Shown: in pieces, positions 5,144-21,449 of the stretch
How positions within the stretch are numbered: position 1 is the stretch's first letter
How the letters are laid out: every line of letters starts with the position of its first letter
Source of the DNA: an uncultured Candidatus Saccharibacteria bacterium
Lineage (GTDB): Bacteria; Patescibacteriota; Minisyncoccia; UBA6257; UBA11618
Reading direction: 5' to 3'
NCBI GenBank assembly: GCA_964362125.1
Contig: CAYICS010000001.1
Location: 18,052-82,051 of the forward strand
Length of the DNA stretch: 64,000 nucleotides
Program-made: the position numbers and the translations under genes
The notes under the pieces: generated by a model
Seen by the model: the letters and a program-made list of their open reading frames with translations, nothing else
What the model was told of the DNA's origin: nothing
The model's database searches: none

Positions 5144-5179
5144 CTGAATAGAACAACCAACAAACTAGGAGGTGATTAG

Positions 5180-5755: not shown

Positions 5756-5757
5756 CG

Positions 5758-5798
5758 TCAGTCCATCTCAGAGAAAGGAGGGTGGACTGATTTTTTAT
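5758..5798 (+). terminator. rho-independent terminator
   Basis: tcagtcca ... tggactga stem followed by TTTTTTAT. Confidence 0.5.
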
Positions 5799-5816
5799 AT
5801 TTGTCATAATTAGCTT

Positions 5817-6800
5817 GTGAGACTAAAAGCGGTCTTTTTGTTGGCTCTAATTTTTATATTCTTACTCTCGAACTCTTTTTTTATAGCGGTAGTGAGAGCT
5901 GATGACTATGTTTTCCCCAAAGAGCTGGATATGTGGTTAGAGAGAAAAATTGTTGAATTAGAAAGGGCCAAGCAGCCCTTGCTAAAAAACTATCGGGAAA
6001 ATAGAAGGAGGATCGAGGCTATTAATCAGACAATTAAAGACCTGCGAGAAGCTAAGGGGGTCACCGAATTTCTGCTCGATCCCAGCGCGGCTGCTGGAAT
6101 GGACTTGAAAAATATAAAAGACCCCCAAGAAAGAAAACGACAATTGGACTTACTTCAAGAACGATTGAATAAAGATCTTGCTCAATCAGATAAACAAGAA
6201 AGGAATCTGCTAAGGAGCGACAAAGCCACGTCTCATCAAATAGAGAATCTTCACCGAAGCCGAGCTCAAGCAGATGGTTTAAGAAAATATTTGGAAAAAT
6301 TTAAGTCGGGATTGGCCAGTCTCGATCCAGATCAATGGAAATTTAATGCCAATACTAATTGGATAATTGAGGGTCTGGATGATGCCTTGGGAAGAATTGG
6401 CTCGGGCCCCGGCGGTTTTGTTGAAGGAGTTCGCCATGGTTTAAGAAACTTGGCTTTTGGTGAAGAGGGTTTTATTGATCTTAAAGTGGTCCAAGCTGAA
6501 TTAAAAAAGTTGACTGATGGTCTGAGGAAAGCCGGAGAATATAATGTTGGCAAACCGATTATTAAGGTAATTCGTGTGGGCGGAAGAGCTCTTCTGGTTG
6601 TCGGAGTTATTGCTGACGCCGGCTTTACCATCCTTGATATCTATACCTTTGAAGGAGATTTCCTTCACAAATTGGCCTACGCCGGCGACCAATTTTTCTA
6701 TATTCCTTTTACCCCGAAGATTGGACTGACTGAGAATTTATTTAAAATCAGCGCCGGGGGCGGGATTTGGATTCACTTAGACAAAAAAAAGAGTGGTTGA
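5817..6800 (+). CDS. hypothetical secreted protein: N-terminal TM/signal, long coiled coil, Gly-rich C-terminal domain
   Basis: Hydrophobic N-terminus LLALIFIFLLSNSFFIAVVRA; a charged heptad-like middle; GSGPGGF...GGGIWIH near the C-terminus. Confidence 0.4.
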   Translation: MRLKAVFLLALIFIFLLSNSFFIAVVRADDYVFPKELDMWLERKIVELERAKQPLLKNYRENRRRIEAINQTIKDLREAKGVTEFLLDPSAAAGMDLKNIKDPQERKRQLDLLQERLNKDLAQSDKQERNLLRSDKATSHQIENLHRSRAQADGLRKYLEKFKSGLASLDPDQWKFNANTNWIIEGLDDALGRIGSGPGGFVEGVRHGLRNLAFGEEGFIDLKVVQAELKKLTDGLRKAGEYNVGKPIIKVIRVGGRALLVVGVIADAGFTILDIYTFEGDFLHKLAYAGDQFFYIPFTPKIGLTENLFKISAGGGIWIHLDKKKSG

Positions 6801-7197
6801 GTTATTGAAACAAATCGAAAATTTGGAAAAATGCCTTAAGGCCTATGAAGGCTCGGGCGGCGGCTATTGTGAAACTCCGCCTCTTTTTGGTATTGGCGAA
6901 AAACGAACCAAATTTATTAATACCAAAGAGGAGGCGGCTGAACAAGAAGAATACCTAGACCGCTACTATGAACAATTGCTTAAGGCACTTGACGATTTGA
7001 AAAAACATAATGCTGAAAAAGAAAAGCCGACGTCAGAATCGTCGCGTCAAGAAAAAGAGGACGACCCGCCCTTAAAAGACCAAAACCTGATGCCCCCTAT
7101 TCCAGCTTATCCATCTAAATCACCAGGATTAACAACTTACAATCAAGATCGGCTTGGACGCTGGCTTAACTTCTTTGATCGTCTGTTGTTTAAATGA
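6793..7197 (+). CDS. hypothetical acidic protein
   Basis: ORF overlapping its neighbours by 4-8 nt (operon-like coupling). Confidence 0.3.
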   Translation: MVELLKQIENLEKCLKAYEGSGGGYCETPPLFGIGEKRTKFINTKEEAAEQEEYLDRYYEQLLKALDDLKKHNAEKEKPTSESSRQEKEDDPPLKDQNLMPPIPAYPSKSPGLTTYNQDRLGRWLNFFDRLLFK

Positions 7198-7940
7198 AAC
7201 ATCTCGGTCAGCATTTCCTTAGAAATCACTCTGCTATTAAAAAAATAGCGGCGGCTTTGGAATTAAAAGAAGGTGATGTCGTTGTTGAAATCGGCTCCGG
7301 ACACGGGGAGTTGACCAACGAATTAATAAACCACCCTATCGAAGTCACCGCCATAGAAAGAGATAAAAACTTGGCGAAAACCCTTGAGTCAAATGTCAAA
7401 AGTCAAAGGTTAAAGGTTATTGAAGGCGACATTCTAAAACTCCTCCCGCAACTCACCTACAACCTACAACCTATCACCTACAAGCTTGTCGGCAACATTC
7501 CCTATTACCTCACCGGCTATTTATTGCGCCTAATAGGGGAGCTGGAATACAAGCCGTCGCTCATAGTTTTCACTCTTCAAAAAGAAGTAGCCGAACGGAT
7601 TGCGGCTAAACCGCCCAAGATGAATAAATTAGCCGCCTCGGTTCAATTCTGGGCTGAGCCGGCAATTATTGATTATCTCCAGCCCGCTGATTTTTCCCCG
7701 CCGCCAAAAGTACATTCGGCTATAATCCGTTTACGCCCTAAACCCCATACCCTAAACCCTAAACCCTATTATCAAATGATTAATCTGCTATTCAAACAGC
7801 CAAGAAAAACAATCAAAAACAACCTCCGCGGCACAGGACTGGAAAACCATTTTAAAACACTTAACCTCACCGGCCAAGAAAGACCGCAGGACTTAGATTT
7901 AGAAAAATTAATACAACTATCTCAGTTTATAAAACTCTAA
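7194..7940 (+). CDS. rsmA: 16S rRNA (adenine1518/1519-N6)-dimethyltransferase KsgA/RsmA
   Basis: HFLRNHSAIKKI...VVEIGSGHGELT SAM motif, NIPYY motif, C-terminal RKTIKNNL. Contains in-frame heptamer arrays (cctacaa-like at ~7458-7490; CCCTAAA at 7736-7769). Confidence 0.85.
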   Translation: MKHLGQHFLRNHSAIKKIAAALELKEGDVVVEIGSGHGELTNELINHPIEVTAIERDKNLAKTLESNVKSQRLKVIEGDILKLLPQLTYNLQPITYKLVGNIPYYLTGYLLRLIGELEYKPSLIVFTLQKEVAERIAAKPPKMNKLAASVQFWAEPAIIDYLQPADFSPPPKVHSAIIRLRPKPHTLNPKPYYQMINLLFKQPRKTIKNNLRGTGLENHFKTLNLTGQERPQDLDLEKLIQLSQFIKL

Positions 7941-8160
7941 ACTCTAAATAAAAGATTTAGGGTATAGGGTTTAGGGTTTAGGGTATAGGGTATTTATAAA
8001 GCTCTAAACTCCAAGCCCTAAGCTCTAAACAAACTCAAAACTCAAAAACGTTTTTGGATTTTGGATTTTGGTTTTTGGAATTTGTTTAGGATTTAGAGCT
8101 TTAGTTTATTTAAGGTTATCCACTAACTACTCACTGCTTCTTAACTTATAATTAAGAGTA
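7937..8160. repeat. Intergenic spacer built entirely of degenerate heptamer tandem repeats (ctctaaa, tttaggg/tataggg x5, aaaactc, attttgg x3 ...) arranged as a long imperfect palindrome
   Basis: 7-bp register holds for about 180 bp. Symmetry centre at aaaaacg|tttttgg (~8048). Contains a telomere-like TTTAGGG run. Confidence 0.8.
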
Positions 8161-8904
8161 ATGGGGCTAACAACAAGATTTGGCCTGGTATTTGGTATTG
8201 CCCTAGGACTTTTTGTTGTCTTAGTAATTTTTGGCAACCTCATTGGCCCGCCCACCCGACCCAATTTAGATCGGGTAGCCGGCGCCCCCGGCCTCCAGAC
8301 TGTGTATAACTTCCAGCAGATTGTTGCTCCCAGCCGTTACTTTAATCCTGTTACCAATCAAAACCTGACTAAAAGCTTGGCGGCTGTTATTGGCCGCAAT
8401 ATCGTAGAATTAAACCCGAAGGGGCCGCGGGCCTTCGATAGTCAGGGACAATTTTTAGGGGTGGCGGAAGCTGATGACGTGGCTGAAGCGGCACTGGCTG
8501 AAGCGCTCAAAAATTTTGACCAAAGTTCCTTCCGGCCGGCCATTGACCGGGAGCAAATAAAAATCAGTGATCAGCAGACAAAAGACAGCTACAAAAAATC
8601 CTTAGCCGCCATTCTTGAAAATCACTTCCTCAACTCTCCTTTGCCTTGGCGCAATACTTCTCCGGAAACGGCTGTACAAATCATCGGCACCTATAACGTT
8701 CTCCTCAACCAACTTTATAAATTACCAGCGCCGCCGGAACTGGTTGATTATCATCGGGAATTACTAAGTGTTTTCACTGGCCAGAAATTGGTGCTGGAAG
8801 CTTTTAAAAATTCCGAAGCTGATCCGCTGCGGGCAATTTTGGCAGCTGAAATGGTGAAAAATCTTAATCAGGAACTAAAGAGTCTGCTAAAAAACCGACT
8901 ATGA
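8161..8904 (+). CDS. hypothetical membrane-anchored protein (first gene of the T4SS-like cluster)
   Basis: N-terminal TM helix LVFGIALGLFVVLVIFGNLIG. Confidence 0.4.
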   Translation: MGLTTRFGLVFGIALGLFVVLVIFGNLIGPPTRPNLDRVAGAPGLQTVYNFQQIVAPSRYFNPVTNQNLTKSLAAVIGRNIVELNPKGPRAFDSQGQFLGVAEADDVAEAALAEALKNFDQSSFRPAIDREQIKISDQQTKDSYKKSLAAILENHFLNSPLPWRNTSPETAVQIIGTYNVLLNQLYKLPAPPELVDYHRELLSVFTGQKLVLEAFKNSEADPLRAILAAEMVKNLNQELKSLLKNRL

Positions 8905-10322
8905 TCAAAAAAACCCTGACAATTTTTCTCCTGCTGACGATCTTGATTCCGGGAATCATCCGGCCTCACCCAGCCGAAGCTGGGCTGGATGATGTGGTGG
9001 AAAAACTGGCCAATGCCGCTGATGCCATCACCGGCGGCATGGGATTCTTTGTGGACTTTTTTGTGAAAACAGCGGTGGAGGTGGCTAAAAAACGGCTTTT
9101 AGATGCAGTCGTGGACCAAATTATTGTTTCGATTGAAGGCGGCGGCCAGCCAATGTTTGTTCAGGATTGGAAGGGCTTCTTGGAACAATATGTCAATGTC
9201 GCCACCGGCGATGTAGTAGAGGCCCTGGGTTTAGGGGCTGTCTGTCGGCCCTTCGGCATCCAACTCCAGCTGGCCTTGTTTCAACCACCCCGCTTCAGCA
9301 ACCAGATTACTTGTACCCTTGATCAAATTGTCGGCAACATCGTTAATTTCTATGAAGATTTCCGCCATGGCGGTTTCATCGCCTACCGCGAGATCTGGCA
9401 GCCGCAAAATAACTTCTACGGCGCCCTGCTGATGGCGATGAACGAAAAGAATAAAAGAATCTTTGCCAACATCTACGCCGCCACCCAAGAGGCGGCGGCC
9501 GGCAGTGGTTATCTGGGCATCAGAAAATGTGATGCCACTGGCCGCTTCTGCTACATCCAAACTCCCGGCACCCAAGTGGGCGCTCTATTGGCTAAGGCCT
9601 ATGGCTCTAAAATCGACTGGCTGATTAATACCCGCGACTTGGCTGGCTACACCGCGGCTGTGGCTGATGCCTTAATCATCCGCCTGACCCGCGAAGGCGT
9701 CTTCGCTCTGCGCAGTTACGCCCAAGACCTGCCTTCTTCTCAAGAAATCTACGCCCGGGCCACTGGAGAAATTCCTGACGACCGCGATCGCTGTGCCAAC
9801 TTAACCGGCACCTTCCTTGAAGACTGCCGTGCCGCCCAAATTATTGAAGAAGGTAATCTGCAAAGCAACCGACGCGCTCTCATTAACCAAATTAACCTCA
9901 CTCTCAGACCACTGCAGTCAGCTGAAGAAAGTTTGCGACAGTCTTTAGCTAAACAAGAAAGTCTGGTTAACGGCCTGACTGAATTAAGACAATGCCAACT
10001 GGGACGGGGCCAGCAGCGAGGCGATACAGAAACTGAACTGGAAACAGCCAACAATCAATTGGGCTCTATTACTCTGGAATTAAGTGATATCAACAGCATC
10101 ACTACCAGCATCTTGAACACCCGGCTGGAACTGGAAAACCCGCCCACCCCCAACCCCTATGTCTTAACTCAAATCTTCAGGCAAGCCGAACCCCTGCTTA
10201 ACCCGCCTGAAGCTAATCGTCTCAAAATTGATAAACAAGCCCAACTGACAACTATCACTGCTCAAGTTAACCCCCGTCTTCAGAAGATACCTGTAGAAAT
10301 ACAACGATGCGCCAACAACTAG
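8901..10322 (+). CDS. hypothetical secreted protein (473 aa) of the T4SS-like cluster
   Basis: Signal peptide MIKKTLTIFLLLTILIPGII...AEA; multiple Cys; C-terminal coiled coil; start overlaps the previous stop. Confidence 0.4.
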   Translation: MIKKTLTIFLLLTILIPGIIRPHPAEAGLDDVVEKLANAADAITGGMGFFVDFFVKTAVEVAKKRLLDAVVDQIIVSIEGGGQPMFVQDWKGFLEQYVNVATGDVVEALGLGAVCRPFGIQLQLALFQPPRFSNQITCTLDQIVGNIVNFYEDFRHGGFIAYREIWQPQNNFYGALLMAMNEKNKRIFANIYAATQEAAAGSGYLGIRKCDATGRFCYIQTPGTQVGALLAKAYGSKIDWLINTRDLAGYTAAVADALIIRLTREGVFALRSYAQDLPSSQEIYARATGEIPDDRDRCANLTGTFLEDCRAAQIIEEGNLQSNRRALINQINLTLRPLQSAEESLRQSLAKQESLVNGLTELRQCQLGRGQQRGDTETELETANNQLGSITLELSDINSITTSILNTRLELENPPTPNPYVLTQIFRQAEPLLNPPEANRLKIDKQAQLTTITAQVNPRLQKIPVEIQRCANN

Positions 10323-13264
10323 TTTTCAGTTTAATATTGCTTTTACTGATACCCCTGACAGCCTTGGCCGCTCAAGACAGTGTGGCTAGTTTGGCCAGTG
10401 AAGCGGCCGGCGGCTTGATGGGTATTTTTGGCGGGCTGACACTGGAGATGCTGGAATTTATCCTCTCTTATGTCAATCTGGCCATCAGCTTTATTGGCGG
10501 AGCGGTCTTTGTCCTGGCCGGGCTGTTCATTCAAACAGCTCTCTTACTCAACGCCACCATCCTTGATAACGAATGGGTACTGGTCGGCTGGCGCATTGTC
10601 CGCGATCTGGCCAACCTTGGTTTTGTCATTGCCATCATCATTATTGCCTTTGCCACCATGCTTCAGTTGGAAAACTACGGAGCGAAAAAAATGTTGGTGA
10701 TATTAGTGATGGCGGCGGTCTTGATTAATTTCAGTTTGGCCATCGCCGGCGTCTTTATTGACTTCTCCAATGTCTTTACTGCCTTGTTTGTGAAAAAAGC
10801 CATCGGCGGCGGGTCGGCCGATGCCTTTTCTTTGGATAATCTCAATCGTTTTGCCGGCAATCTGGCCTATGCCTTCTCCCCCCAAAAACTGCTCGAGACC
10901 AATGATAATCCCGATATCTACAAATCTATTGGGACTTCAATGGCAGGGATGATATCGCTTTTTGCCTCAACCTTTTTTCTTTTTCTTTTTACCACCCTGG
11001 CCGCCTTGTCAATGCTGGCAATCGCTTTAATGCTGTTGGTGCGCTATGTCAATCTCAGCCTCCTGCTGATTCTTCTGCCCGGAGCGGTGCTGGCCCTGAC
11101 CCTGCCTAAAATGGAAAAGTACTGGAGTCTTTGGGTTAATAAATTCTTCAGTCAGATCATCTATCTCCCGGCAGCTACTTTCTTTATTTACCTGACTATT
11201 ATCTTTGTTGATCTTAAAGCCCAAGCGGAAAAATCAGGGATGGCGGCTGAGAGTCGCCAACATCTGGCTTTTCTGGTTGATCAGCAGAGCGGCAATGCTT
11301 TTTCTGGTTTTCTCGGCTTAATGGCCCAACCCTTTGCTCACATTGCCCAGATGATTGTGGTGATCTTTATCCTGACTTTGGGAATGAAAACAGCCGCGGC
11401 TGTTGGTGATGGCGGCGCCGCCGCTATTGTTGGTATGTTCAATACTGCCCGGGGCTGGGTGATGGGTCAGGTTAAGGGTCGGGCCAAACAAGCTGGCGGA
11501 CTGGCCGCCCGAGCGGCTCTGCGGACCGGCGGCCCGGAGAAAGGGCTGGGCGCCCGGATGACCAACTTGATGGCCCGCATTCCCGGCTTGCGCCGCCTAG
11601 CAGCGCCCTTACAAGGATTTATCTCCGGCTCTAAAGAAAATATTGATCGCTACGCTAAAGAATACGAACAAATGGGCAAGCAGGGCGCTCTTAATATTGC
11701 CCGCAGTCCGGGATTGTTGGGTGAACAGAATCCGGAGCGGCGAACGGCTCTGGCCCGGGTGATTGCTGAAAAAGGCTGGCTTAGTGAAGAAGGTGGTGGT
11801 AAAGGCCTAACTGCCAAAGAATTTGAGCCGTTCCTGACCACTGCTGAAAAATGGGGGGTGAAGAAAGAAGATTTGCTAAGAGTGGCTCCCCAGCTTTATT
11901 CAGCTTTTGGTTACAAATCTGATCCAGCTGAGCTGGATAAGCTGGTGGCTGAGCTTTATAGAACTGACGAAGATGTTGACAAGATTAGCGCCGGCGCTTT
12001 GGAGAACCTGGAAATTGTCAGTCGCCTCACATCTCAACAAACCAAGCGAATTATTCAGCGCGGCAGTTATGAAAAGAGACGGACTTTAATTAGAACCCTC
12101 AATCGGCTCGATGAGCCGCTAATGCCTGTGGAGATGAGCCGGAAACTAGCCATTATGGTTCAAGGATTCAAAAATCTGAGAACCACCCCTAACTTAAGCG
12201 GGATTAGAGAGGTGCCGGACTTGATTACCAAAGCTGAGGCAGCGGCAGGAGCGGTTTGGCCGGCAACGACAGCGGCAACTCCGCCGCCAACCCTGCCTCT
12301 GCCGCCGGCGCCGCCAGTTCCAACCAGACCAGATACCACGCCGGCGACGCCATTAGCCGGCTGGCCGGCTGGCAGGCCCACAGTCCTGCCTCAACCTGAA
12401 CCAACCCCACCAATCTTGCCTCTACCCCCAACCCCGCCGACTGCAGGCCCGGCGCCGACCCCCCCAGCTCCGCCAACACCACCTCTGCCGCCAATAGCGC
12501 CACCTCTACCACCGGCGCCAACGACGCCGCCAGCCCCTCCCAGCAGACCAATTCTATCAACACCTCCGGCTTCTCCTACTGCGCCGCCGGCAACACCACC
12601 CGGGCCTCCGGCACCGCCACTACCACCAACACCGCCAACACCAACACCACCAGCTCCAACTACTCCACCCACTCCACCGGTCCCGCCAGCTCCGCCTGCC
12701 TCTCCGACACCCTTAAGACCGCCTGCGCCCCCAACTCCACCGACTGCGCCGCCAGCTCCGCCAGTACCACCTACTGGGGGGCCGCCTACTCCTCCAACTC
12801 CGCCGGCTCCAGTAAGGCCGGGACCACCGGCTCCTCCACCAGCGCCGCCAACGCCAACGCCGCCGACACCACCACCCCCACCAGCGCCAATACCGCCGGC
12901 GCCGCCAGTTCCAACCAGACCAGATACCACGCCGGCGACGCCATTAGCCGGCTGGCCGGCTGGCAGGCCCACAGTCCTGCCTCAACCTGAACCAACCCCA
13001 CTCACTCCACCAACCCCACTCACTCCCCCGACTCCACCAGCTCCTCCTCCAGCAGTTAGGCCGGCCGCTACTCTTCAAGAACGAATTGAATATGCTCGCT
13101 GGAAAGTTAACGCCTCGCGTCAAGATCTAGAACACTTGCAAGAAACTGTGCCCAATCCCCAGCACACAGTCATTACCTCAGCCCGCCAAAACCTGCGCCG
13201 GGCAGAAAGAGAATTAGCCCGACTCCAACAACAAACCTCCCCTGATGGTTTACCAATCCAATGA
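10307..13264 (+). CDS. VirB6/TrbL-like polytopic membrane protein with a ~270-aa Pro/Thr/Ala-rich linker and C-terminal coiled coil
   Basis: Signal peptide plus about 7-8 TM helices in the first 400 aa; low-complexity PTPP/PAPP region 12240-13060 containing a perfect 107-bp internal direct repeat. Confidence 0.45.
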   Translation: MRQQLVFSLILLLLIPLTALAAQDSVASLASEAAGGLMGIFGGLTLEMLEFILSYVNLAISFIGGAVFVLAGLFIQTALLLNATILDNEWVLVGWRIVRDLANLGFVIAIIIIAFATMLQLENYGAKKMLVILVMAAVLINFSLAIAGVFIDFSNVFTALFVKKAIGGGSADAFSLDNLNRFAGNLAYAFSPQKLLETNDNPDIYKSIGTSMAGMISLFASTFFLFLFTTLAALSMLAIALMLLVRYVNLSLLLILLPGAVLALTLPKMEKYWSLWVNKFFSQIIYLPAATFFIYLTIIFVDLKAQAEKSGMAAESRQHLAFLVDQQSGNAFSGFLGLMAQPFAHIAQMIVVIFILTLGMKTAAAVGDGGAAAIVGMFNTARGWVMGQVKGRAKQAGGLAARAALRTGGPEKGLGARMTNLMARIPGLRRLAAPLQGFISGSKENIDRYAKEYEQMGKQGALNIARSPGLLGEQNPERRTALARVIAEKGWLSEEGGGKGLTAKEFEPFLTTAEKWGVKKEDLLRVAPQLYSAFGYKSDPAELDKLVAELYRTDEDVDKISAGALENLEIVSRLTSQQTKRIIQRGSYEKRRTLIRTLNRLDEPLMPVEMSRKLAIMVQGFKNLRTTPNLSGIREVPDLITKAEAAAGAVWPATTAATPPPTLPLPPAPPVPTRPDTTPATPLAGWPAGRPTVLPQPEPTPPILPLPPTPPTAGPAPTPPAPPTPPLPPIAPPLPPAPTTPPAPPSRPILSTPPASPTAPPATPPGPPAPPLPPTPPTPTPPAPTTPPTPPVPPAPPASPTPLRPPAPPTPPTAPPAPPVPPTGGPPTPPTPPAPVRPGPPAPPPAPPTPTPPTPPPPPAPIPPAPPVPTRPDTTPATPLAGWPAGRPTVLPQPEPTPLTPPTPLTPPTPPAPPPAVRPAATLQERIEYARWKVNASRQDLEHLQETVPNPQHTVITSARQNLRRAERELARLQQQTSPDGLPIQ
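12304..12410 (+). repeat. 107-bp perfect direct repeat, copy 1 (encodes PAPPVPTRPDTTPATPLAGWPAGRPTVLPQPEPTP)
   Basis: Identical to 12895-13001. Confidence 0.85.
12895..13001 (+). repeat. 107-bp perfect direct repeat, copy 2
   Basis: Identical to 12304-12410, 591 bp downstream, inside the same CDS. Confidence 0.85.
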
Positions 13265-13994
13265 TTACTCTGATTACTCTCCAAAAAAGCAAAAATCAAT
13301 GTTTGGGGGTGAGACCCCCAAACATTCATTCAAACAAATGATTGCTCAAGAGAAAGTAGAAAAACTTCATCTGGTCTTCAGCGCCCTCCCCCAAGAGGCG
13401 CAGGATTGGCTGGGCTCAGAAGAAGCGGCCCGGCTGACTGAAGAAATTAACAGCCGCCATGGCCTGACCAGCGGCCAGGAGTATCTGATCCCGGAATTAT
13501 TATTCCGCTTGGTCACTGATGATTTAGCGCCTTCAGAATTTACCGCTGCCCTAAAAGATGCGCTAAAACTCGACCTTGAAACCAGCCGGGTTGTCACCAA
13601 AGAAATCAGAGAGAAAATTCTTGAACCCATTGCCCAGCCGCTGGGAATTTTAGGCATTGACTTGGGGCAGATGGCTTATGTAAACCTGACCCCGCAACCT
13701 CCCACAGCACCCGCACCGAGCGCCCCACCCCCAACCATCAACCAACCTCCGTCATTTCCGCCCCCTGATCAACCATTCATTATCCACCAAGAAGGCGTGG
13801 TGGCGCCGATTGGACCAATCAGACCCATCAATCCCATTGGTCCAACGGGCCGGACACCGCCCGCCAATCCTCCTAAAGTTATTATTGAACGAGTGGTCCA
13901 TTACAATCCCCACCTCACGCCCCTCACCCGGATGCAACCCCAAATAAAGGTCGGAGGGAAAATAAAAGTTCCTAAGTCGAGATGGTTTGTTTAA
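13245..13994 (+). CDS. hypothetical protein with Pro-rich C-terminal half
   Basis: ORF; likely true start at MFGGETPK (~13299). Confidence 0.35.
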   Translation: MVYQSNDYSDYSPKKQKSMFGGETPKHSFKQMIAQEKVEKLHLVFSALPQEAQDWLGSEEAARLTEEINSRHGLTSGQEYLIPELLFRLVTDDLAPSEFTAALKDALKLDLETSRVVTKEIREKILEPIAQPLGILGIDLGQMAYVNLTPQPPTAPAPSAPPPTINQPPSFPPPDQPFIIHQEGVVAPIGPIRPINPIGPTGRTPPANPPKVIIERVVHYNPHLTPLTRMQPQIKVGGKIKVPKSRWFV

Positions 13995-14010
13995 AAGCGA
14001 CACCAATGCG

Positions 14011-14064
14011 CACACGAATACACACGAATGACACGAAAATTTTCGTGTGTGCCCTTTCGTGTGG
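14011..14064. promoter_or_regulatory. Array of CACACGAA motifs in both orientations, including the perfect palindrome acacgaaaattttcgtgt, upstream of the virB3-like gene
   Basis: cacacgaat acacacgaat gacacgaaaattttcgtgtgtg ccctttcgtgtgg; candidate operator/promoter for the virB3-virB4 operon. Confidence 0.45.
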
Positions 14065-14088
14065 GCTTTAGCCGGGCTATTCGCATAC

Positions 14089-14553
14089 ATGCAGTACCAA
14101 GTTCCCCAATTTATCGATGTTGAAGAAAAAATTGTCGGCCCACTGACCCTGAAACAATTCTTCTACCTGGCCGGCGCCTTCCTCATTCTTTTCTTTCTTT
14201 TCTTCATCTTTAAATTATGGCTGTGGCTGATTTTGGCGGTGATTATCGGCGGCGGCGCCATCGCCTTGGCTTTTGTCAAATACAACGGCCGGCCGTTGAC
14301 GATCATGATCAGGGCGATGCTGAGCTATTTCTGGCGGCCCCGCCGTTACAGCTGGCAGACCACCGGGCGTCCTTTAGGCGGGAAATTGGGGGAATTGGAA
14401 CTACAGCTAAAAACTTCCACTCAACCCATTGCTAAAAGAGAGCGGGGGTGGCTGGGTCGGATTTTTGGCGGCGGCAAAGCCGAAGAAAAATTCGAAATTT
14501 TAAGAAAAATCAGCGGCGAAAAAGAAGTCGCCCGGAGAATAGATTACAGATAG
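14089..14553 (+). CDS. VirB3-like T4SS protein (PrgI family; two TM helices)
   Basis: VPQFIDVEEKIVGPLTLKQFFYLAGAFLILFF matches the PrgI/ConD/VirB3-like signature (kI.GpltlrQf.yl), and it sits immediately upstream of virB4. The ORF-track start at 14047 is probably an over-extension. Confidence 0.5.
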   Translation: MQYQVPQFIDVEEKIVGPLTLKQFFYLAGAFLILFFLFFIFKLWLWLILAVIIGGGAIALAFVKYNGRPLTIMIRAMLSYFWRPRRYSWQTTGRPLGGKLGELELQLKTSTQPIAKRERGWLGRIFGGGKAEEKFEILRKISGEKEVARRIDYR

Positions 14554-14830
14554 ATGTACTAAGCCATAAGCCATAAGCCGTAAGCCATAAATCCTAAACT
14601 CTAAATCCTAAACAAATGACAATCATCCAAACTACAAATTCTAAACCCGAGTTTGGGATTTATGATTTAGATATTAGAATTTGTTTAGAGATTACCTGCC
14701 CGCCATCGGCCTGAGCCGAAGGCACTGGCAGGCGGGGAGATTAGAGCTTAGAGCTTTATAAATACCCTACCCCCTAAACGCTAAACCCTAAACGCTAAAC
14801 CCTAAACCCTAAACCCTAAACCACATACCC
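14554..14830. repeat. Heptamer-periodic spacer between virB3-like and virB4: (TAAGCCA)4, (TAAATCC/TAAACTC), ... (CCCTAAA/CGCTAAA)7, with an embedded 44-nt GC-rich hairpin element
   Basis: 7-bp register maintained. The telomere-like CCCTAAA run at 14786-14825 is the reverse complement of the 7965-8000 run. Confidence 0.8.
14694..14738. repeat. 42-44-nt GC-rich palindromic element, copy 1 (cctgcccgccatcggcctgagccgaaggcactggcaggcgggg), flanked by gagatta direct repeats
   Basis: Near-identical copy at 48027-48068 (2 substitutions plus a compensatory change in the inner stem). Confidence 0.7.
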
Positions 14831-15445
14831 TTGACCAAAGAAACTTTACCCACTCAAGAGCTGATCCCAATTGAAGATATCAAAAACGATACCCTGATTT
14901 TAAACAATGGCGGCCTGCGGAAAATTCTGCTGGTCTCGGGAGTGAATTTAGAATTGAAGTCAGAACAGGAACAGGAACTGACGATTCTCACTTACCAGGA
15001 TTTGATTAACTCCCTTGATTTTCCTATCCAGCAGCTGATTCACACCCGGAAACTTAATATTGAAGACTACCTGCGGAAAATTGGTCTGCGTCAGCAAAAC
15101 GAAAAACAACCCCTCTTGAAAAATCTTATTGAAGACTACCAGAAATTTGTCGGTGATTTTGTCAGCCAAAATCCCATTATGACCAAAAGTTTTTTCCTGG
15201 TTGTCCCTCATCAACCCCTGGCCAGCTTAAAACAAACAGGGAGGGCAGTCCGGAAAGGAGTCCTCGGCATCTTCCGCCGCCAGCCAGGGACTTTGATTGA
15301 AGCCGCTGAAGAAGACTTCCGGCAATTAGAACAAAAAGTTGAAAAAATTATCAATAACTTGGCCCAGATCGGTCTGCGCGCCCTGCCCCTTAATCGCGAA
15401 GAAATTTCCGAACTGCTTTACAATCTCTATAACCCAACTAATTAA
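14831..15445 (+). CDS. VirB4/TraE-like protein, N-terminal domain fragment (204 aa)
   Basis: IEDIKNDTLILNNGGLRKILLVSGVNLELKSEQEQELTILTYQDLINSLDFPIQQLI matches the N-terminus of Gram-positive VirB4 homologues (PrgJ/TrsE/ConE). Ends at TAA 15446-15448, 3 nt before the ATPase ORF. Confidence 0.5.
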   Translation: MTKETLPTQELIPIEDIKNDTLILNNGGLRKILLVSGVNLELKSEQEQELTILTYQDLINSLDFPIQQLIHTRKLNIEDYLRKIGLRQQNEKQPLLKNLIEDYQKFVGDFVSQNPIMTKSFFLVVPHQPLASLKQTGRAVRKGVLGIFRRQPGTLIEAAEEDFRQLEQKVEKIINNLAQIGLRALPLNREEISELLYNLYNPTN

Positions 15446-15448
15446 ACC

Positions 15449-17144
15449 CATGCCTGAACCACAACCCATTAAAGACATCATTGCTCCACCCGAGATTGTC
15501 ATCCAATCCAACCAACTGCAGGTAGGGAAGAAATTGGTGCGGACACTGTTCTTCTTTACTTATCCTCGTTATTTGGCAGCCGGCTGGTTTCTGCCTATCA
15601 TCAACGCTCCAGAATTGATGGATGTCGCCATCTACCTCCACCCCATTGATACCGCCACCGCTCTCAAGAACTTGCGGCGCAAGGCCGCCCACATTGAGGC
15701 CCAGGTTATTGAGCAGGAAGAAAAAGGACTGGTGCGCAGCCCGATGCTGGAAACCGCCCTGCGGGATGTCGAGAGTCTGCGGGACACCTTGCAACAGGCC
15801 ACGGAACATTTGTTTAATGTGGCTGTCTATATCAGTTTCTATGCTGATACAGCCGAAGAATTAGACAAAGTCGAGGCCCGGGTTACCAATCTCCTCGAAA
15901 GCAAGTTGGTGGTGGTAAAAAATGCCCTCTTCCAGGAGAAAGAGGCTTGGCAATCAGTCCTGCCCTTGGCCAACGACCAATTACTAATTCATCACCCGAT
16001 GAACTCCGGGCCGGCCTCCACTTTATTCCCCTTTGTCTCGGCTGATCTAACTGGCGCTGACGGCATCCTTTACGGCATCAACCGCCACAACAACACCCTG
16101 ATTATTTTCGACCGCTTCTCTTTGGAAAATGCCAATATGGTGATTTTTGCCAAATCCGGCGCTGGCAAATCTTACGCCACCAAACTGGAAGCCCTGCGCC
16201 AGTTAATGTTTGGCGTGGATATTCTCATCATCGACCCGGAGGATGAATACCAAAGTCTGGCTGAGGCGGTGGCTGGCAGTTATTTCAAAATTTCCCTGGC
16301 TTCCCAACACCACATTAATCCTTTTGATATTCCGGTTCTGCCTGAAGGCGAAGATCCGGGCGATATTTTAAAATCACATCTGGTCACTTTGGCTGGTCTG
16401 ATCAAAATAATGGTGGGCAAAGTCAAGCCTGAAGAAGAGGGGATTTTAGACCGGGCCCTGATTGAAACCTACGCTCTCCAAGACATTGTTCCGGGAAAAG
16501 ATTTTAGCCGCAAAGAAGCGCCCCGCCTTTCCCAACTCCAGTCAGTTTTGGAAAATATGGAAGGCGGAAAAAGCCTGTCCCAGCGCCTCTACCGCTTTAC
16601 CGAAGGCACCTATGCCGGCTTCACCAACCTCCCCACTAATGTCGATTTGAAAAATCGCTTTATTGTTTTTTCTATTCGCGATTTGGAAAACGAATTGCGG
16701 CCGATCGCTATGTACCTGATCACTCATTATATCTGGAATATTATTAAAGCTCAGCAGAAAAAACGGATTCTCATCATCGATGAGGCCTGGTGGCTGATGC
16801 AGTACCCCGATGGCGCCGCCTTCCTTTTTGGTTTGGTGAAACGGGCGCGTAAATATCTCTTGGGGGTGACCACCATCACCCAAGATGTTGAAGATTTCCT
16901 GCTCTCGGCCTATGGCCGGCCAATTATCACCAACTCTTCTCTGCAATTGTTATTGAAACACTCGCCGGCGATGATGGATGTGGTGGCTAAAACTTTCAAT
17001 CTCACTGAGGGGGAACGGAATTTCCTTTTGGAAACAGCTGTGGGGCAGGGCTTATTCTTCGCCGGCCTCCAGCATGCCGTCATCCAGGTGCTGGCCTCGC
17101 CTTTAGAAAATCAAATTATCACTAAAAAACAAACCAGCCCATGA
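15449..17144 (+). CDS. VirB4-like T4SS ATPase, central and C-terminal domains
   Basis: VRTLFFFTYPRYLAAGWFLPII signature; Walker A FAKSGAGKSYATK; Walker B ILIIDEAWW; C-terminal TTITQDVEDF. Confidence 0.75.
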
Positions 17145-17464
17145 GCAACAATAAAATTTCAGGAATTGAGGCCTTCTTCTTAATCAGTCTCTGCCTGATT
17201 TTTGACCTAATAGATTTAGTGGCCTTAGGCATTGATTTGATACCGGTGGTGGGATTGCCTATAGGAGAAAGTTTGAAATTTATCAATAACTTATTAATCT
17301 CGCTGACGGTGATTTTTTGGCTTACAATTAGAGGAGTTCGCTCTTATTGGTTTTGGGCCGGCAGTCTCGTGGAAACTATCCCGGGCATTAATAGTCTCCC
17401 CACCAGAACTATCACTGTGGTTATTACTCTCTATGCAAATAACAAAGAAGTGGCAACAACTTAG
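17141..17464 (+). CDS. small hydrophobic membrane protein (107 aa)
   Basis: Three predicted TM segments; translationally coupled to virB4 (overlap ATGA). Confidence 0.35.
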   Translation: MSNNKISGIEAFFLISLCLIFDLIDLVALGIDLIPVVGLPIGESLKFINNLLISLTVIFWLTIRGVRSYWFWAGSLVETIPGINSLPTRTITVVITLYANNKEVATT

Positions 17465-17474
17465 TTTAGTTTCT

Positions 17475-17520
17475 CTTATGGCTTATGGCTTATGGCTTAT
17501 CTATGGCTTATGGCTTATAG
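17475..17520 (+). repeat. (TTATGGC) heptamer tandem repeat, 3 perfect and about 3 degenerate copies, covering the start codon and N-terminus of the next gene
   Basis: tcttatggcttatggcttatggcttatctatggcttatggcttatag; each unit contains an ATG. The reverse complement (GCCATAA)4 is present at 14560-14590. Confidence 0.85.
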
Positions 17521-18032
17521 CTTCTGCCGGCGAGCCGCCTGTCTTAATCCTCACCTGGCAGGCTGATAATTATGCTCCCAGCCCCTATCAAGGCAAAAAA
17601 CTGCCCAGCGCCGGCACCCCCATCAAGGTGGCTTTGCAAGTTTTTCAACATCGATTGGTCGGTGACATTACTAATAAAGAAATCCGCTGGTTTTTAAATA
17701 ATCAGCTGGCGGCCGCTGGCATTGGCCGCACCACTTTTACTTTCAATGCCCCCGGCTTAGGTGAAGACGGGGTGGTGGTCAGGGCTCAGGTGCGGGATTA
17801 CCACGGTCAGGAGGAAGATGGTTTTGCGGCTATTCCCATTGTCCAGCCTGAAGTGGTGATTGATCAATCGGCCCTACCCACCCTGCAGGGGCTTTTCTAC
17901 TTTTTTAACATCAACAGCGAAGCAGAACTGGAAACCAGCTGGCAGGACAATAATCATAACATCACTCTCAGAGCCCACCGTCGGACCAATCCCTTAGAGT
18001 CGGCCCAAGCCACCCTTTTGAAAAAACAATGA
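17478..18032 (+). CDS. hypothetical protein with repeat-encoded hydrophobic N-terminus (MAYGLWLIYGLWLIASAG)
   Basis: First in-frame ATG lies inside the heptamer array; the ORF-track start at 17433 overlaps the upstream gene. Confidence 0.4.
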   Translation: MAYGLWLIYGLWLIASAGEPPVLILTWQADNYAPSPYQGKKLPSAGTPIKVALQVFQHRLVGDITNKEIRWFLNNQLAAAGIGRTTFTFNAPGLGEDGVVVRAQVRDYHGQEEDGFAAIPIVQPEVVIDQSALPTLQGLFYFFNINSEAELETSWQDNNHNITLRAHRRTNPLESAQATLLKKQ

Positions 18033-19090
18033 GAACTACCATCGCCGTCATTGTCACTGTCATTGTCATGGTCGTGGTCGTAATCACGCCTGCCTTCGCT
18101 TTGGCTCAAGTGGAAACCTGCGGCCCCACACCTCAAGGCAACTACCGCCTTTGTTCGGCCATCCCGGGCATTGAAGAAGTCACTGGCATAGCTGATTTGA
18201 TTAAACAGTTTTTCAGATTTGCCTTGGTGGCTGGCGGGACAGTGGCTTTTATACTGGTCATCATCGGCGGCATCACTCTGATTTTGGAGAGCGGCAATGT
18301 GGTCAAACAGGGTCAGGCCCGGGCCCGGATTACCAGCGCCATTGTTGGTTTGCTGCTGCTGATGGGCTCAACCTTAATTCTCTACAATCTCAACCCCGAG
18401 TTAATTACCATCGAGGAGCCGGGCCTACCCGAACCTTCAGAAGCCAGGGATTTAGAAGAGATGGCTGGGGCCTTGGGGAAAAATTTGACGGGCAGGGCGG
18501 TGATGATTGAAGCACGGCACCAACAGTTTATTGAAACTCAGCTTACAAAAAGAATGGATGAGGAAAAAAATTTATCAGAACAAGCGACTTTAATGAGACA
18601 GGAGATTACTGTTTTGGAAAATGCCGAGGGACTGACTGCTGACCAAAGACAACGGCTGGCCCAATTAAAAACTGAAGCTCCAGCCGCTGAAAACAAATTA
18701 TTACGACTCAAACAAGATCGTCTTTCTGCCCAATTAACCCAAGTTCAAGATCAAATTAACCAGATGGTGGATAAATCACAGCAGAACTGGAAAGGAAGAT
18801 CAGTGGGTTTCTTTGGTCAGTGGTTAGGTGGCGGGCGCTCTTTCACCCAAGCCGCCCATTATGCTGGTTTGAAAGAAACGGAACGGGCAAAGTTTGATCA
18901 ACTATTGGGAAACAGAGCGAGTTTGGTAAAAGAACTGCGCCAAGTGGAACAACAATTGGGTATTCCCCAAGCCGAGGATTTGGGCAGGCAAGAATCAGAG
19001 CAGGCTGTAGAGCGAGCTCGGGAGTTAATGCGAAGTATCCCACCATCTAAATACGAAGGGGGTCGTCCTGGTAGTAGAAGTCTCTATTAA
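18029..19090 (+). CDS. putative T4SS pilin-like (VirB2/TrbC-like) membrane protein with a long C-terminal coiled coil
   Basis: Long signal peptide; Cys pair CGPTPQGNYRLC; two hydrophobic helices separated by a short charged loop (FALVAGGTVAFILVIIGGITLILESGNVVKQGQARARITSAIVGLLLLMGSTLIL); then about 200 aa Gln/Glu/Arg-rich coiled coil. Confidence 0.35.
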   Translation: MRTTIAVIVTVIVMVVVVITPAFALAQVETCGPTPQGNYRLCSAIPGIEEVTGIADLIKQFFRFALVAGGTVAFILVIIGGITLILESGNVVKQGQARARITSAIVGLLLLMGSTLILYNLNPELITIEEPGLPEPSEARDLEEMAGALGKNLTGRAVMIEARHQQFIETQLTKRMDEEKNLSEQATLMRQEITVLENAEGLTADQRQRLAQLKTEAPAAENKLLRLKQDRLSAQLTQVQDQINQMVDKSQQNWKGRSVGFFGQWLGGGRSFTQAAHYAGLKETERAKFDQLLGNRASLVKELRQVEQQLGIPQAEDLGRQESEQAVERARELMRSIPPSKYEGGRPGSRSLY

Positions 19091-19092
19091 AA

Positions 19093-19872
19093 ATGAGAAA
19101 GTGGTTAATTATTATCGTCATTATTCTGATCCTGATCTTTTTAGGAGTTATTTTTTACCTGGGCTTAAAACAAACCAGGGTAGAGTTGCCGGCGCAAGTG
19201 GTCGGCCAGCCGACACCAGAACCGCCCCTGATCCCAGTAGTGACCAACCTCAAAGAAGCGACGCTAGATGAAAAAAAGACCTATCAAATAGAACTGGCCC
19301 AGAAGGCAGTAGAGCTCCCCCCAACACTGAATCTGCTTGATGTCGCCGCTCGCCCCTATAAAAAGGACCAGTTGTTAATCATTGAAAAACCCTCGGGATT
19401 TTTAGAAACCAACGCTTGGGTTTATCACCAAAAAAACGGGGTTTCAATTCCGCTTTTCCAAGGAATTATTGGTCTGTCCTTAAACTGGTCAACTGATGGC
19501 GAGCAAATGCTTAAGTTTCAAATTGAACCCGAGACGCGGCGGCCTAATTTAACTTTAATTAACCAAAGCGACAACTTAGAATTGGAATTGCCTTGGGTGA
19601 CATTCCCAGAGAAATGTTTAATAGAAAAAGAGGCCCTCTACTGCGCTGTGCCCTTGGAACTGCCGGCTAATCTGAGGTGGCCTGACGATTATTGGAAGCG
19701 CCGCTTTTATCCGCAAGACCGCTTGGTCAAGCTGGTGATCAAAAATTCCTCGATTGAGACACTCGACGACGGCCTTAGCCAACTAATTGACGCTGTTGAT
19801 TTAAAGCTGATTAAAAACGAACTCTACTTCACCAACCGCCGCAACGGCAAGGTTTATAAAATAAATATTTAA
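19093..19872 (+). CDS. hypothetical single-pass membrane protein (last gene of the cluster)
   Basis: N-terminal TM helix WLIIIVIILILIFLGVIFYLGL. Confidence 0.35.
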   Translation: MRKWLIIIVIILILIFLGVIFYLGLKQTRVELPAQVVGQPTPEPPLIPVVTNLKEATLDEKKTYQIELAQKAVELPPTLNLLDVAARPYKKDQLLIIEKPSGFLETNAWVYHQKNGVSIPLFQGIIGLSLNWSTDGEQMLKFQIEPETRRPNLTLINQSDNLELELPWVTFPEKCLIEKEALYCAVPLELPANLRWPDDYWKRRFYPQDRLVKLVIKNSSIETLDDGLSQLIDAVDLKLIKNELYFTNRRNGKVYKINI

Positions 19873-20309
19873 AGCAGTGGTTTCACCACCACACTCCGTT
19901 CTGACCTTTCGCCGGCGCTTTCGGTAGTGACATCGGGTCTGGTGGCTAATTCAGTGTGGATAAGACGGCGCTCGTAAGCATTCATTGCCGGCAACTTGAC
20001 CTCGGTTCTGGTCAGCATCACTTTTCGGGCGGCGGCCCGGGCCAGATCAATAATAATCCGCTCCCGCTCCCGGCGGTAATTGTTGATATCAATAAAAACA
20101 TTCTGCTCTAAACCCTGCTTCCTGCCCGCCAACCGCGCCAAATGAGTCAGGTCACCAATCAGCTTGGGCACCCAGTCTCTGAACCAGTCGCCTTCATTAA
20201 TAAAAATCGCCAAGCGCCGGCTCTCTTTTTCCAAATCAACTTTAAAATCACGAAAACCGGCCAGTGCCAACATCTTTTGAATTGCTTCTTGAATCTGTTC
20301 CATAGCCAT
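19869..20309 (-). CDS. jag: Jag/KhpB RNA-binding protein (KH plus R3H domains)
   Basis: R3H motif MNAYERRLIHTELA; located downstream of yidC as in most bacteria. Confidence 0.7.
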   Translation of the reverse strand: MAMEQIQEAIQKMLALAGFRDFKVDLEKESRRLAIFINEGDWFRDWVPKLIGDLTHLARLAGRKQGLEQNVFIDINNYRRERERIIIDLARAAARKVMLTRTEVKLPAMNAYERRLIHTELATRPDVTTESAGERSERSVVVKPLL

Positions 20310-20934
20310 AAACTATTTTATTGATATACAACTGCTGGCCGATCGAGAATAAGGTGGTGGTTAACCAGTAGAAACCGACAGCTGAAGGCAGGTAGGCAAG
20401 AATAGTCAATGTCAAAACCGGACCGATAAAAACCATATTTTTAGCCATTGGATCAGCCTTTTGTTTGGGGAGACTCAACCGGCCCTGAAAATACTGAGCC
20501 ACAACCGACAAAACCACTACCATTATACTGGTTTCTTTTAAATCTATCAAGCCCAGCGACCAACTGTTTAAATCCGGCGGCGGCTGTAAGAAAACCCGGT
20601 AGAGGGCGATGAGAATCGGCAGTTGAATTAAAAGCAAAAGAAAGGTGGTGAGGGGATTGATTTGGTGACGGCGATAAAGCTCCAGCATAGCCTGGGCCTG
20701 CTTCTCCCGATTGTCTTTATGTTGGTTTTGGATTTTTTCTAACTCCGGCCGCAGTTTCTGGAGGGCGGCCTGACTCTTAAAACTTTTATAAAAAAGCGGG
20801 AAGAGCACAATTCTCACAACCAAGGTTAATAAAATAATCGCCACCCCCAAGTCCTGGAAGGCCAGATTATTATAAAGCCAAACTAAAAGATAAAATAACG
20901 GCTCAACTAGGATTTTGTGAAATAAACCACTCAT
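20248..20934 (-). CDS. yidC: membrane protein insertase YidC/Oxa1 (short form)
   Basis: LLVWLYNNL...VAIILLTLVVRIVLFPL...ELYRRHQINPL conserved YidC core; rnpA-yidC-jag synteny. Confidence 0.8.
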   Translation of the reverse strand: MSGLFHKILVEPLFYLLVWLYNNLAFQDLGVAIILLTLVVRIVLFPLFYKSFKSQAALQKLRPELEKIQNQHKDNREKQAQAMLELYRRHQINPLTTFLLLLIQLPILIALYRVFLQPPPDLNSWSLGLIDLKETSIMVVVLSVVAQYFQGRLSLPKQKADPMAKNMVFIGPVLTLTILAYLPSAVGFYWLTTTLFSIGQQLYINKIVYGYGTDSRSNSKDVGTGRFS

Positions 20935-21208
20935 TGATTTCTTTTTGACTTAAACGATCAGCCCTAGTCTGGGCAATAATGAGATAATCAGCCACCGGCC
21001 ACTGTTTTAATACTAACTCAGCAGCCTGAAATAACCTACGCCGCAGACGATTTCTCTCAACACTATTTTTAGCCGAGACGATGACGCTCAGGCGGCTAAA
21101 AGAGCGGGGGGAAGAGAAGATTTTGATGGTAAAATAAGGGCCGCGAACTACCCGGCCTTTTTGATGAGCAACTTCAAGGATGGGCAAACGAAATTTTTTA
21201 GACAACAT
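20903..21208 (-). CDS. rnpA: ribonuclease P protein component
   Basis: KKFRLP...RNRLRRRL motif; position between rpmH and yidC. Confidence 0.8.
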   Translation of the reverse strand: MLSKKFRLPILEVAHQKGRVVRGPYFTIKIFSSPRSFSRLSVIVSAKNSVERNRLRRRLFQAAELVLKQWPVADYLIIAQTRADRLSQKEINEWFISQNPS

Positions 21209-21221
21209 TTTTTAGACAATA

Positions 21222-21356
21222 TTACAAAGCCAAACGATACCGGCCTTTACGGCGCCGCCTTCTTAAAACCCGCTGGCCGGTGCTTTTCCGCATTCTTTTA
21301 AGAAAGCCGTGACTGCGGCTTCTTTTTCTTTTACTGGGTTTAGTAATTCTAGTCAT
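21222..21356 (-). CDS. rpmH: 50S ribosomal protein L34
   Basis: Translates to MTRITKPSKRKRSRSHGFLKRMRKSTGQRVLRRRRRKGRYRLAL (44 aa). Absent from the ORF track because it is under 60 aa. Confidence 0.85.
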   Translation of the reverse strand: MTRITKPSKRKRSRSHGFLKRMRKSTGQRVLRRRRRKGRYRLAL

Positions 21357-21449
21357 AAAAACGAGCTTAGCAGGTTATCCCCAACTTATCAACATTTTTT
21401 CCCAACCTGTCACTCTTGACCAACTCTTAACCCCATCTAAAATGAACTT
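21357..21449. promoter_or_regulatory. dnaA upstream region with adjacent DnaA-box variants TTATCCCCA (21375-21383) and TTATCAACA (21386-21394)
   Basis: Each is one mismatch from the TTATCCACA consensus. Confidence 0.5.

Follow-up and report, generated by a model that had tools for sequence, protein, structure and literature searches.

The closest described relatives of the locus analysed here, a cluster of 11 open reading frames (ORFs) at positions 8161-19872 of a 64,000-nucleotide stretch of contig CAYICS010000001.1 (the window, by which we mean this whole stretch), are the type IV secretion systems (T4SSs) of the Patescibacteria. In the survey of 3,035 Patescibacteria genomes by Quinonero-Coronel et al. 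2025 (PMC12102498), VirB4 was found in 2,417 and forms a monophyletic clade nested in MPF_FATA, with TrsD homologues adjoining virB4 in 1,664 cases. The same survey reports PrgI/VirB3, VirB6 (mostly via an MPF_T profile), PF18895/VirB2-like pilins and few VirB8 homologues; relaxases occur in only 103 of the 3,035 genomes, and VirD4-like genes, for the type IV coupling protein (T4CP), occur in many, usually far from virB4. The Paceibacteria cluster lies near dnaA, dnaN, rnpA, ksgA and rpmH, and that of the class ABY1 co-localises with comF, recG and radA. Transposon sequencing (Tn-seq) by Wang et al. 2023 (PMC10633639) found the Southlakia epibionticum genes SEML1_0006-0019, which are without recognisable coupling or relaxase proteins, to be essential in host co-culture; the supplement to that work lists a VirB4 of 612 amino acids (aa), an adjacent 293-aa ORF, PrgI, VirB6 and PF18895 pilins, and an essential exported immunoglobulin (Ig)-like protein, SEML1_0005, lies beside the cluster. 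A 2025 FEMS review (PMC12857230) regards the Patescibacteria T4SSs as an acknowledged new branch of their superfamily and records that S. epibionticum loses competence and yet stays viable when comEC is deleted, whereas its T4SS is essential. Finally, a 2026 preprint on a cultivated Minisyncoccota parasite, which takes up RNA of its host, describes tubular structures where the two cells meet that may be T4SS pili, and reports a monophyletic VirB4.

The locus in the window is a typical copy of the Patescibacteria T4SS-like cluster already described in 2023-2025, its composition, split VirB4 and location all having been published. We consider it very likely that it is a Patescibacteria-clade, monoderm (MPF_FATA-related) T4SS, inherited vertically as a core chromosomal locus beside oriC. 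As in the described systems, S. epibionticum ML1 (SEML1_0005-0019) among them, the VirB4 motor ORF, about 560-610 aa long, stands next to a TrsD-like ORF and is accompanied by PrgI/VirB3, an extended VirB6, a PF18895 pilin and an exported Ig-like protein near VirB4, there is no adjacent relaxase or T4CP, and the position is that at dnaA/dnaN/rnpA/rpmH/ksgA. It differs from them in having one long-tailed pilin gene in place of an array of 2-11 short pilins, and neither a lysozyme or VirB1-like protein nor an NTF2 (VirB8-like) protein was recognised in the window cluster; furthermore, an insertion of about 270 aa, rich in proline, in VirB6 is specific to the window genome. Five Paceibacteria-specific proteins, which we name A247, B473, D249, H107 and K259, are not discussed for these systems in the consulted portions of PMC12102498 and PMC10633639.

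The VirB4 motor and its probable membrane partners

The motor of the cluster is VirB4, the C-terminal part of which is encoded at 15450-17144 (564 aa; 601 aa if the longest ORF, from 15339, is read). It matches the NCBIfam model conju_CD1110 for monoderm VirB4 at 362.3 bits, over a cut-off of 325 (model positions 184-728), as well as Pfam P-loop_TraG (80.9 bits) and AAA_10, and both its Walker A (AKSGAGKS) and its Walker B (ILIIDE, residue 440) motifs can be read intact in the translation. At E<=1e-5 it has a single relative of known structure, the VirB4 of the Firmicute Thermoanaerobacter (PDB 4AG5, E 1e-42), and the best curated match and the best solved match are thus both monoderm, a placement that comes from matches and not from a phylogenetic tree. 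The N-terminal domain of VirB4 is a separate polypeptide of 204 aa, the TrsD-like protein (14831-15445), which lies in another reading frame and stops at 15445, just ahead of the ATPase ATG at 15450. It matches the NCBIfam models TrsD/TraD (E 4.7e-10), VirB4_plasma (E 7e-13, model positions 103-244), VirB4_CagE (E 2.9e-7, positions 4-178) and CD1110 (positions 1-105), with scores under the full-length cut-offs, as expected because the ORF is a VirB4 fragment. Jointly the two ORFs cover a complete VirB4.

Relatives were gathered with a VirB4-motor scan of one genome per GTDB species, which returned more than 586; the best 80 loci were analysed by tblastn and jackhmmer with the window proteins, and each component frequency given here is counted among the loci with enough flank. 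Their VirB4 proteins are 54-72% identical to that of the window, all of the clusters are of Patescibacteria type, and their records carry names such as Parcubacteria, Harrisonbacteria, Paceibacterota, Wolfebacteria and Nealsonbacteria, which agrees with a place for the window VirB4 in the Patescibacteria clade. The TrsD-like ORF is present in 75 of 75 loci, and a stop follows the VirB4 N-domain in 73 of 79, the other six (L002, L004, L008, L018, L019 and L020) having N-domain and ATPase in a single unsplit gene. Since the stop is kept so widely, the split is a conserved, natural two-gene architecture, and its origin in a frameshift, a pseudogene or an error is rejected. Among the machineries of conjugation, those of the MPF_FATA class (pGO1/pSK41 TrsC-TrsD-TrsE, pCF10 Prg/Pcf with PrgH-PrgI-PrgJ, CTn2 with CD1110) share with the window cluster a CD1110-type VirB4, a PrgI-type VirB3 and the lack of an outer-membrane core of VirB7/9/10, and pGO1 also has a separate TrsD-type N-domain protein. 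Unlike them, the window cluster was found to hold no relaxase, coupling protein, PrgK/TrsG-type hydrolase, PrgL/TraM-type VirB8-like protein or PrgB-type adhesin; it has a VirB2-like pilin, which is lacking in the Gram-positive systems, and it is not on a mobile element.

Upstream of the motor genes stands the PrgI/VirB3-family membrane protein (168 aa), which exceeds the cut-off of Pfam PF12666 PrgI (41.7 bits against 27), has a transmembrane (TM) hairpin at aa 33-80 and is found in all 68 of 68 loci. Directly before it lies D249 (249 aa), a soluble protein with no TM segment, made up of a conserved, helical-looking N-domain of about 115 aa and a proline-rich tail. The longest ORFs run from 13245 to 13994 for D249 and, from a GTG at 14047, to 14553 for PrgI; the likely starts are M32 of D249 (13338-13994) and M15 of PrgI (14089-14553), because the homologues begin there. 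The D249 N-domain (aa 32-147) gathers 306 cluster representatives at E<=1e-3 and has no Pfam family: the window copy has no Pfam match, 59 family members give four scattered marginal matches to four different families, the family profile finds nothing significant in the PDB, and a Pfam scan of 10 distant proteins with the domain returned nothing relevant, its one large match (P0129) being a low-complexity artefact. D249 is present in 57 of 64 loci, directly upstream of PrgI, and in one species the two are fused in frame (L002:8571-9425), the PrgI part of the fusion aligning from its MQFQVPQFI start and sharing 45% identity with the window PrgI. This constant adjacency, together with the fusion, points to action at the cytoplasmic face of PrgI, the cytoplasmic N-terminus of which D249 probably binds, and among the uncharacterised neighbours D249 is the strongest case for a link to the machine.

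The VirB6/TrbL-family polytopic membrane protein (10307-13264, 985 aa) is an extended VirB6: it starts with a signal-like sequence, carries several TM-like segments between aa 49 and 368 and ends in a long hydrophilic C-terminal stretch. An orthologue is found in 47 of 50 loci. Its identity is supported at the level of the family: in an alignment of the first 480 residues of 52 orthologues, 10 match PF04610 TrbL/VirB6 (best E 3.7e-10), and the family profile matches TrwI of R388 (7o3v_F, E 1e-5). The preliminary description of this DNA had presented VirB6 as a giant proline-rich protein, and the proline-rich tract does exist (12284-13096, about aa 660-930); as a trait of the system it does not stand. 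Residues 601-900 contain 22, 55 and 51 prolines per successive 100 aa, the core of the tract being more than 50% proline, whereas the orthologues, which are mostly 640-800 aa long with C-terminal domains rich in Lys, Glu and Ala, peak at 3-22 per 100 aa, with the top value (22) in the closest relative, L014. Judged from this comparison, the tract is a low-complexity expansion of about 270 aa that belongs to the genome and is not a property of the system. Within it is a direct repeat of 150 nt (12261-12410 and 12852-13001, 89% identity), in which 32 aa recur unchanged (at aa 670 and 867) and which could reflect a recent internal duplication or a possible site of assembly collapse or expansion. 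The tract also accounts for a local anomaly in base composition (GC 0.58, GC skew -0.28).

The VirB2-like T4SS pilin-domain protein (18029-19090, 353 aa) has TM-like segments at residues 1-32, 60-93 and 99-122, that is a signal peptide and two TM helices with a basic loop between them, followed by a C-terminal coiled-coil extension of about 230 aa. Here, too, support comes from the family, 46 of 52 members of which match PF18895 T4SS_pilin (best E 2.7e-12); the protein is present in 40 of 49 loci, and family HMMs (hidden Markov models) run over the window found no further pilin or other paralogue of the cluster, so that the pilin is single-copy there. The layout of a signal peptide and two-helix hairpin, as well as the alignment of the VirB6 profile to TrwI, recalls the Gram-negative MPF_T systems (R388 Trw, Agrobacterium VirB); unlike these, the cluster has no VirB5, VirB7-10, VirB11 or VirD4 that we could find, and its VirB4 is much closer to the monoderm VirB4s. 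In relatives, C-terminal regions that are long and differ in kind follow the PF18895 hairpin in the same protein, and pilin-family ORFs of 500-1200 aa occur in L029, L062, L051, L070, L078, L050, L042, L072 and others, a few members carrying an SLT lytic transglycosylase or a VanY peptidase.

These assignments dispose of the notion that the ATPase is an isolated, VirB4/HerA-like DNA pump of a prophage or some other system with unrelated neighbours. That A247, B473, D249 and H107 belong to no recognisable family might have spoken for it; with PrgI above its cut-off, the VirB6 and pilin families supported, no phage genes and a conserved gene order, it is already refuted and we give it almost no credence. 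The preliminary description had named this very outcome, a VirB4 left without support for VirB3, VirB6 or pilin, as what would overturn its reading, and the profile searches did not produce it. Its calls of a contiguous same-strand cluster, a PrgI/VirB3-like protein, a VirB4 in N-terminal and ATPase ORFs, a VirB6/TrbL protein and a VirB2-like pilin with coiled coil, and of a minimal, Gram-positive-type machine of the kind seen in ultra-small epibiotic bacteria, are borne out by the same results.

Gene order, inheritance and genomic setting

All 11 ORFs of the cluster are on the + strand and tightly packed, most junctions overlapping by a few bases, and the only sizeable intergenic gap is at 14553-14831. 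Upstream of the cluster is ksgA/rsmA (7194-7940); downstream, on the - strand, follow jag/R3H (19869-20309), yidC (20248-20934), rnpA (20903-21208) and, as a small ORF between rnpA and dnaA, rpmH (L34), and then come dnaA (21450-22811), 4.3 kb downstream of VirB4, and dnaN (22989-24101). The cumulative GC skew has its minimum at about 22-24 kb of the window, and DnaA-box-like 9-mers (one mismatch allowed) lie at 21375 and 21386, upstream of dnaA, and at 22832, 22891 and 22943, between dnaA and dnaN, with 25 observed in the whole window against 12 expected. By its dnaA/dnaN neighbours, the skew minimum and these clustered 9-mers, the cluster is chromosomal and directly adjoins the replication origin. 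Consensus scans of 7000-21500 for promoters and terminators did no better than on shuffled sequence.

The comparison with related clusters that the preliminary description had called for returned the same order, ksgA-A247-B473-VirB6-D249-PrgI-TrsD-VirB4-H107-I199-pilin-K259-(jag,yidC,rnpA)-dnaA-dnaN, in dozens of Parcubacteria/Paceibacteria species, and the grouping goes far beyond chance. In 32 of 42 loci dnaA is found within 10 kb, and identity of VirB4 to the window copy correlates with that of DnaA (Spearman 0.83, p 3e-9, n=33). Because the divergence of VirB4 tracks that of DnaA, we regard this as a vertically inherited core locus at oriC; an origin in a mobile element is rejected on the conserved synteny and the co-divergence with dnaA. 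Seven loci carry titles from elsewhere, namely Gammaproteobacteria (L048, L057, L059, L063, L068), Bdellovibrionales (L077) and Nanoarchaeota (L049); each has a Patescibacteria-type VirB4/TrsD/PrgI cluster at 54-55% identity, and these are probably mis-binned or mislabelled contigs of metagenome-assembled genomes (MAGs).

Homology of its parts to the Gram-positive conjugation machinery raises the question of whether the locus is a conjugative element, working or in decay (an integrative and conjugative element, ICE, or an integrated plasmid), for which the relaxase and coupling protein genes lie at another site, as the VirD4-like genes that PMC12102498 places far from virB4 would allow. We hold this to be very improbable. 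In Pfam and NCBIfam scans of window ORFs of at least about 190 aa, no VirD4/TraG coupling protein, relaxase, integrase or VirB7-11 was found, in keeping with what the preliminary description had said of VirD4, relaxase and VirB11, and no tRNA marks a boundary, the sole tRNA being at 48205. With no relaxase or coupling protein beside it, the cluster is therefore not an apparatus for self-transfer (conjugation). The constancy of the ksgA and jag/yidC/rnpA/rpmH/dnaA flanks across dozens of species largely refutes the idea of such an element, and the co-divergence of VirB4 and DnaA, the base composition, which is that of the surroundings except in the proline-rich tract, and the rarity of relaxases in the survey cited above all count against it.

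The one ATPase of the T2SSE superfamily in the window (28371-29714, 447 aa) scores 457 bits for GspE, 429 for PilB and 49 for VirB11, and by these scores is of the type II/type IV-pilus (GspE/PilB) type. It lies between ruvC and ruvB and is preceded by a 357-aa ORF that has no family match (region 27241-29714); no other pilus genes were recognised next to it. Between uvrD and ksgA (3294-7197) is a block of predicted secreted, coiled-coil or otherwise unassigned ORFs (3294-3980, 4085-4576 on the - strand, 4681-5031, 5180-5755, 5817-6800 and 6793-7197), none with a significant Pfam or NCBIfam match. The three of them used as tblastn queries (5180-5755, 5817-6800 and 6793-7197) gave zero matches across the 80 related loci, and they appear to be lineage-specific. 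DNA polymerase I appears to be in pieces, a 5'-3' exonuclease ORF of 290 aa (32452-33324) and a family-A polymerase-domain ORF of 375 aa (33742-34869), and no 3'-5' exonuclease domain was detected for it in 32452-34869. The only tRNA of the window, tRNA-Arg (CCG) at 48205-48277, overlaps the 3' end of an ORF that resembles Wzy_C/O-antigen ligase (47202-48299), which is probably over-called at that end.

Companion proteins of the cluster

The first gene after ksgA encodes A247 (8161-8904, 247 aa), which is anchored in the membrane at its N-terminus by one TM-like segment (aa 1-32) and continues as a hydrophilic domain. It has no match in Pfam, NCBIfam or the PDB sequences, and its family is found at the equivalent position in 21 of 48 loci. 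B473 (8901-10322, 473 aa) follows, a secreted protein with a signal-like N-terminus and 8 Cys, in which a conserved Cys-containing N-domain precedes a C-terminal coiled coil; 22 of 49 loci have it. None of its 32 homologues has a Pfam domain, and the only two with a name are called 'hypothetical protein'; the invariant residues include W90, C115, C138, C210, C217 and the motif T221-P222-G223. An AlphaFold2 model built on these 32 homologues gives a helical N-domain at low confidence (pLDDT, the predicted local distance difference test, about 40-65) and confident long helices at aa 320-473, and the family profile met only coiled-coil noise in the PDB. In two loci a single ORF was recovered for both proteins (L018, 705 aa, 3759-5873; L008, 650 aa, 115-2064), which suggests a fusion of the A247 and B473 genes there.

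H107 (17141-17464, 107 aa), with about three TM segments, nearly always begins directly behind the VirB4 stop in the 31 of 73 loci that have it. In its family Asp22, which lies in the first TM segment, is invariant, and the motif E-x-IP...LP..T is conserved; it has no Pfam match, and its profile finds nothing significant in the PDB. The preliminary description paired it with the next gene, I199 (17433-18032, 199 aa), as two small membrane proteins, which is right for H107. I199 is modelled instead as an N-terminal anchor helix followed by 12 strands, which form two tandem Ig-like beta-sandwiches (AlphaFold2, mean pLDDT 85.9), the alignment behind the model being thin since word-indexed searches for homologues gave only 1 and 9 proteins. 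Foldseek ranks Ig, BIg (SiiE), PKD and FN3 domains highest in the PDB and gives no match to NTF2 or VirB8, and the family profile matches Ig-like surface proteins weakly, one homologue carrying PF06832; orthologues have extra repeats, and the family is present in 24 of 61 loci. The idea that I199 is the missing VirB8, a TM anchor with an NTF2-like domain, is rejected by these tandem Ig-like folds.

K259 (19093-19872, 259 aa), the last gene before jag, was described earlier simply as a TM protein; it is indeed membrane-anchored, and its family profile places it further with the TolB-like beta-propellers (E about 1e-11 to 1e-10). Two Cys are invariant in the family, which is found in 25 of 45 loci, and the window copy is shortened: it is without roughly the first 110 propeller residues of most orthologues, as are the L014 and L003 copies. 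Its membership of the machine is uncertain.

A model for the machine and its use

We propose a model for the cluster that is consistent with our observations and with those already published. The motor would be assembled from two polypeptides, the TrsD-like N-domain and the P-loop ATPase, of which the gene split and the Walker motifs can be read directly. By analogy with the architecture of R388 and pKM101, this motor would dock at the membrane through the PrgI/VirB3 and polytopic VirB6 homologues, with D249 probably held at the N-terminus of PrgI as its neighbour and, in one species, its fusion partner. Given the part played by VirB4 in pilus biogenesis, it may then power the extraction of the VirB2-like protein and its polymerisation into a surface filament or tube. 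Hydrophobicity and charge predict that the coiled-coil C-terminus of the pilin points outward together with A247, B473, I199 and K259, where these proteins could reach across the wall or touch the host cell. The machine would most likely serve a contact-dependent exchange of macromolecules with a host bacterium that is needed for epibiotic growth, as suggested by the homologous cluster of Saccharibacteria; this exchange may be an export of effectors or an uptake of nucleic acids or other macromolecules from the host.

Such an exchange could also be narrower than the model has it, that is the import of nucleic acid by a Ced-like or competence-coupled machine that brings host DNA or RNA into a nucleotide-auxotrophic epibiont. 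The missing relaxase and T4CP in the window fit this non-conjugative use, as do the possible T4SS pili at the interface of the parasite that consumes host RNA and the ABY1 cluster with its comF, recG and radA neighbours. In the archaeal Ced system (CedA/CedB), too, no relaxase accompanies the VirB4/HerA-like ATPase, and the use proposed is non-conjugative. The window VirB4 does match CedB (E 1.8e-7) and CedD (E 6.5e-4), but weakly and far under the cut-offs (30 against 700 bits for CedB), through the shared P-loop only, and no CedA-like protein was recognised in scans without a CedA model. No com genes are linked to the cluster in the window. In addition, because deletion of comEC leaves S. 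epibionticum viable, the essential role of its T4SS is not ComEC-dependent uptake of DNA. On balance we consider an import machine unlikely.

Returning to the monoderm T4SS that we favour, there are several points that weigh against it, in whole or in part. The window VirB6 on its own has no Pfam match, and the window pilin stays under the PF18895 cut-off (22.2 bits, E 1.5e-4, against 26.6). The SLT and VanY fusions suggest that the 'pilin' domain is often a membrane anchor for extracellular modules, and a protein of 353 aa with a 230-aa extension may not polymerise as a VirB2 of about 70-120 aa does. No SLT, CHAP, NlpC or lysozyme domain was found in any ORF of the cluster, B473 being modelled with confidence in its C-terminal helices, and no VirB8-like NTF2-fold protein was found, neither in I199 by its model nor in A247, the family profile of which matches no solved VirB8-like chain. 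The genome could encode a coupling protein outside the window. Since A247, B473, H107, I199 and K259 are detected in about half of the loci, they may be lineage-specific neighbours and not parts. Finally, the one species in which such a cluster is known to be essential belongs to the Saccharimonadia, and its cluster differs by a pilin array and by lysozyme-like and NTF2-like proteins.

With these points in mind, we offer a further proposal tentatively, as one that we would sooner doubt than assert. A247, B473, D249, H107, I199 and K259 may be Paceibacteria-specific structural parts of a T4SS-derived organelle, in which B473 could take over the functions of the missing VirB1, VirB5 and VirB8 as a new module that spans the wall or meets the host, and the PF18895 protein with its long tail could build a decorated filament that resembles no known conjugative pilus.

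The locus shows the Paceibacteria arrangement at oriC cleanly and completely and does not represent a new kind of system. What is added here is the genome-specific proline-rich tract, the Ig-like I199, the TolB-like K259 and the fusion-linked D249, A247 and B473. The Patescibacteria T4SS is carried by most of the Patescibacteria (the candidate phyla radiation, CPR), ranks with the best-conserved envelope machines of this huge and mostly uncultivated radiation, and was the first T4SS found to be indispensable to the growth of its owner, and for this machine the list of consistently linked neighbours provides concrete targets for structural and genetic work.

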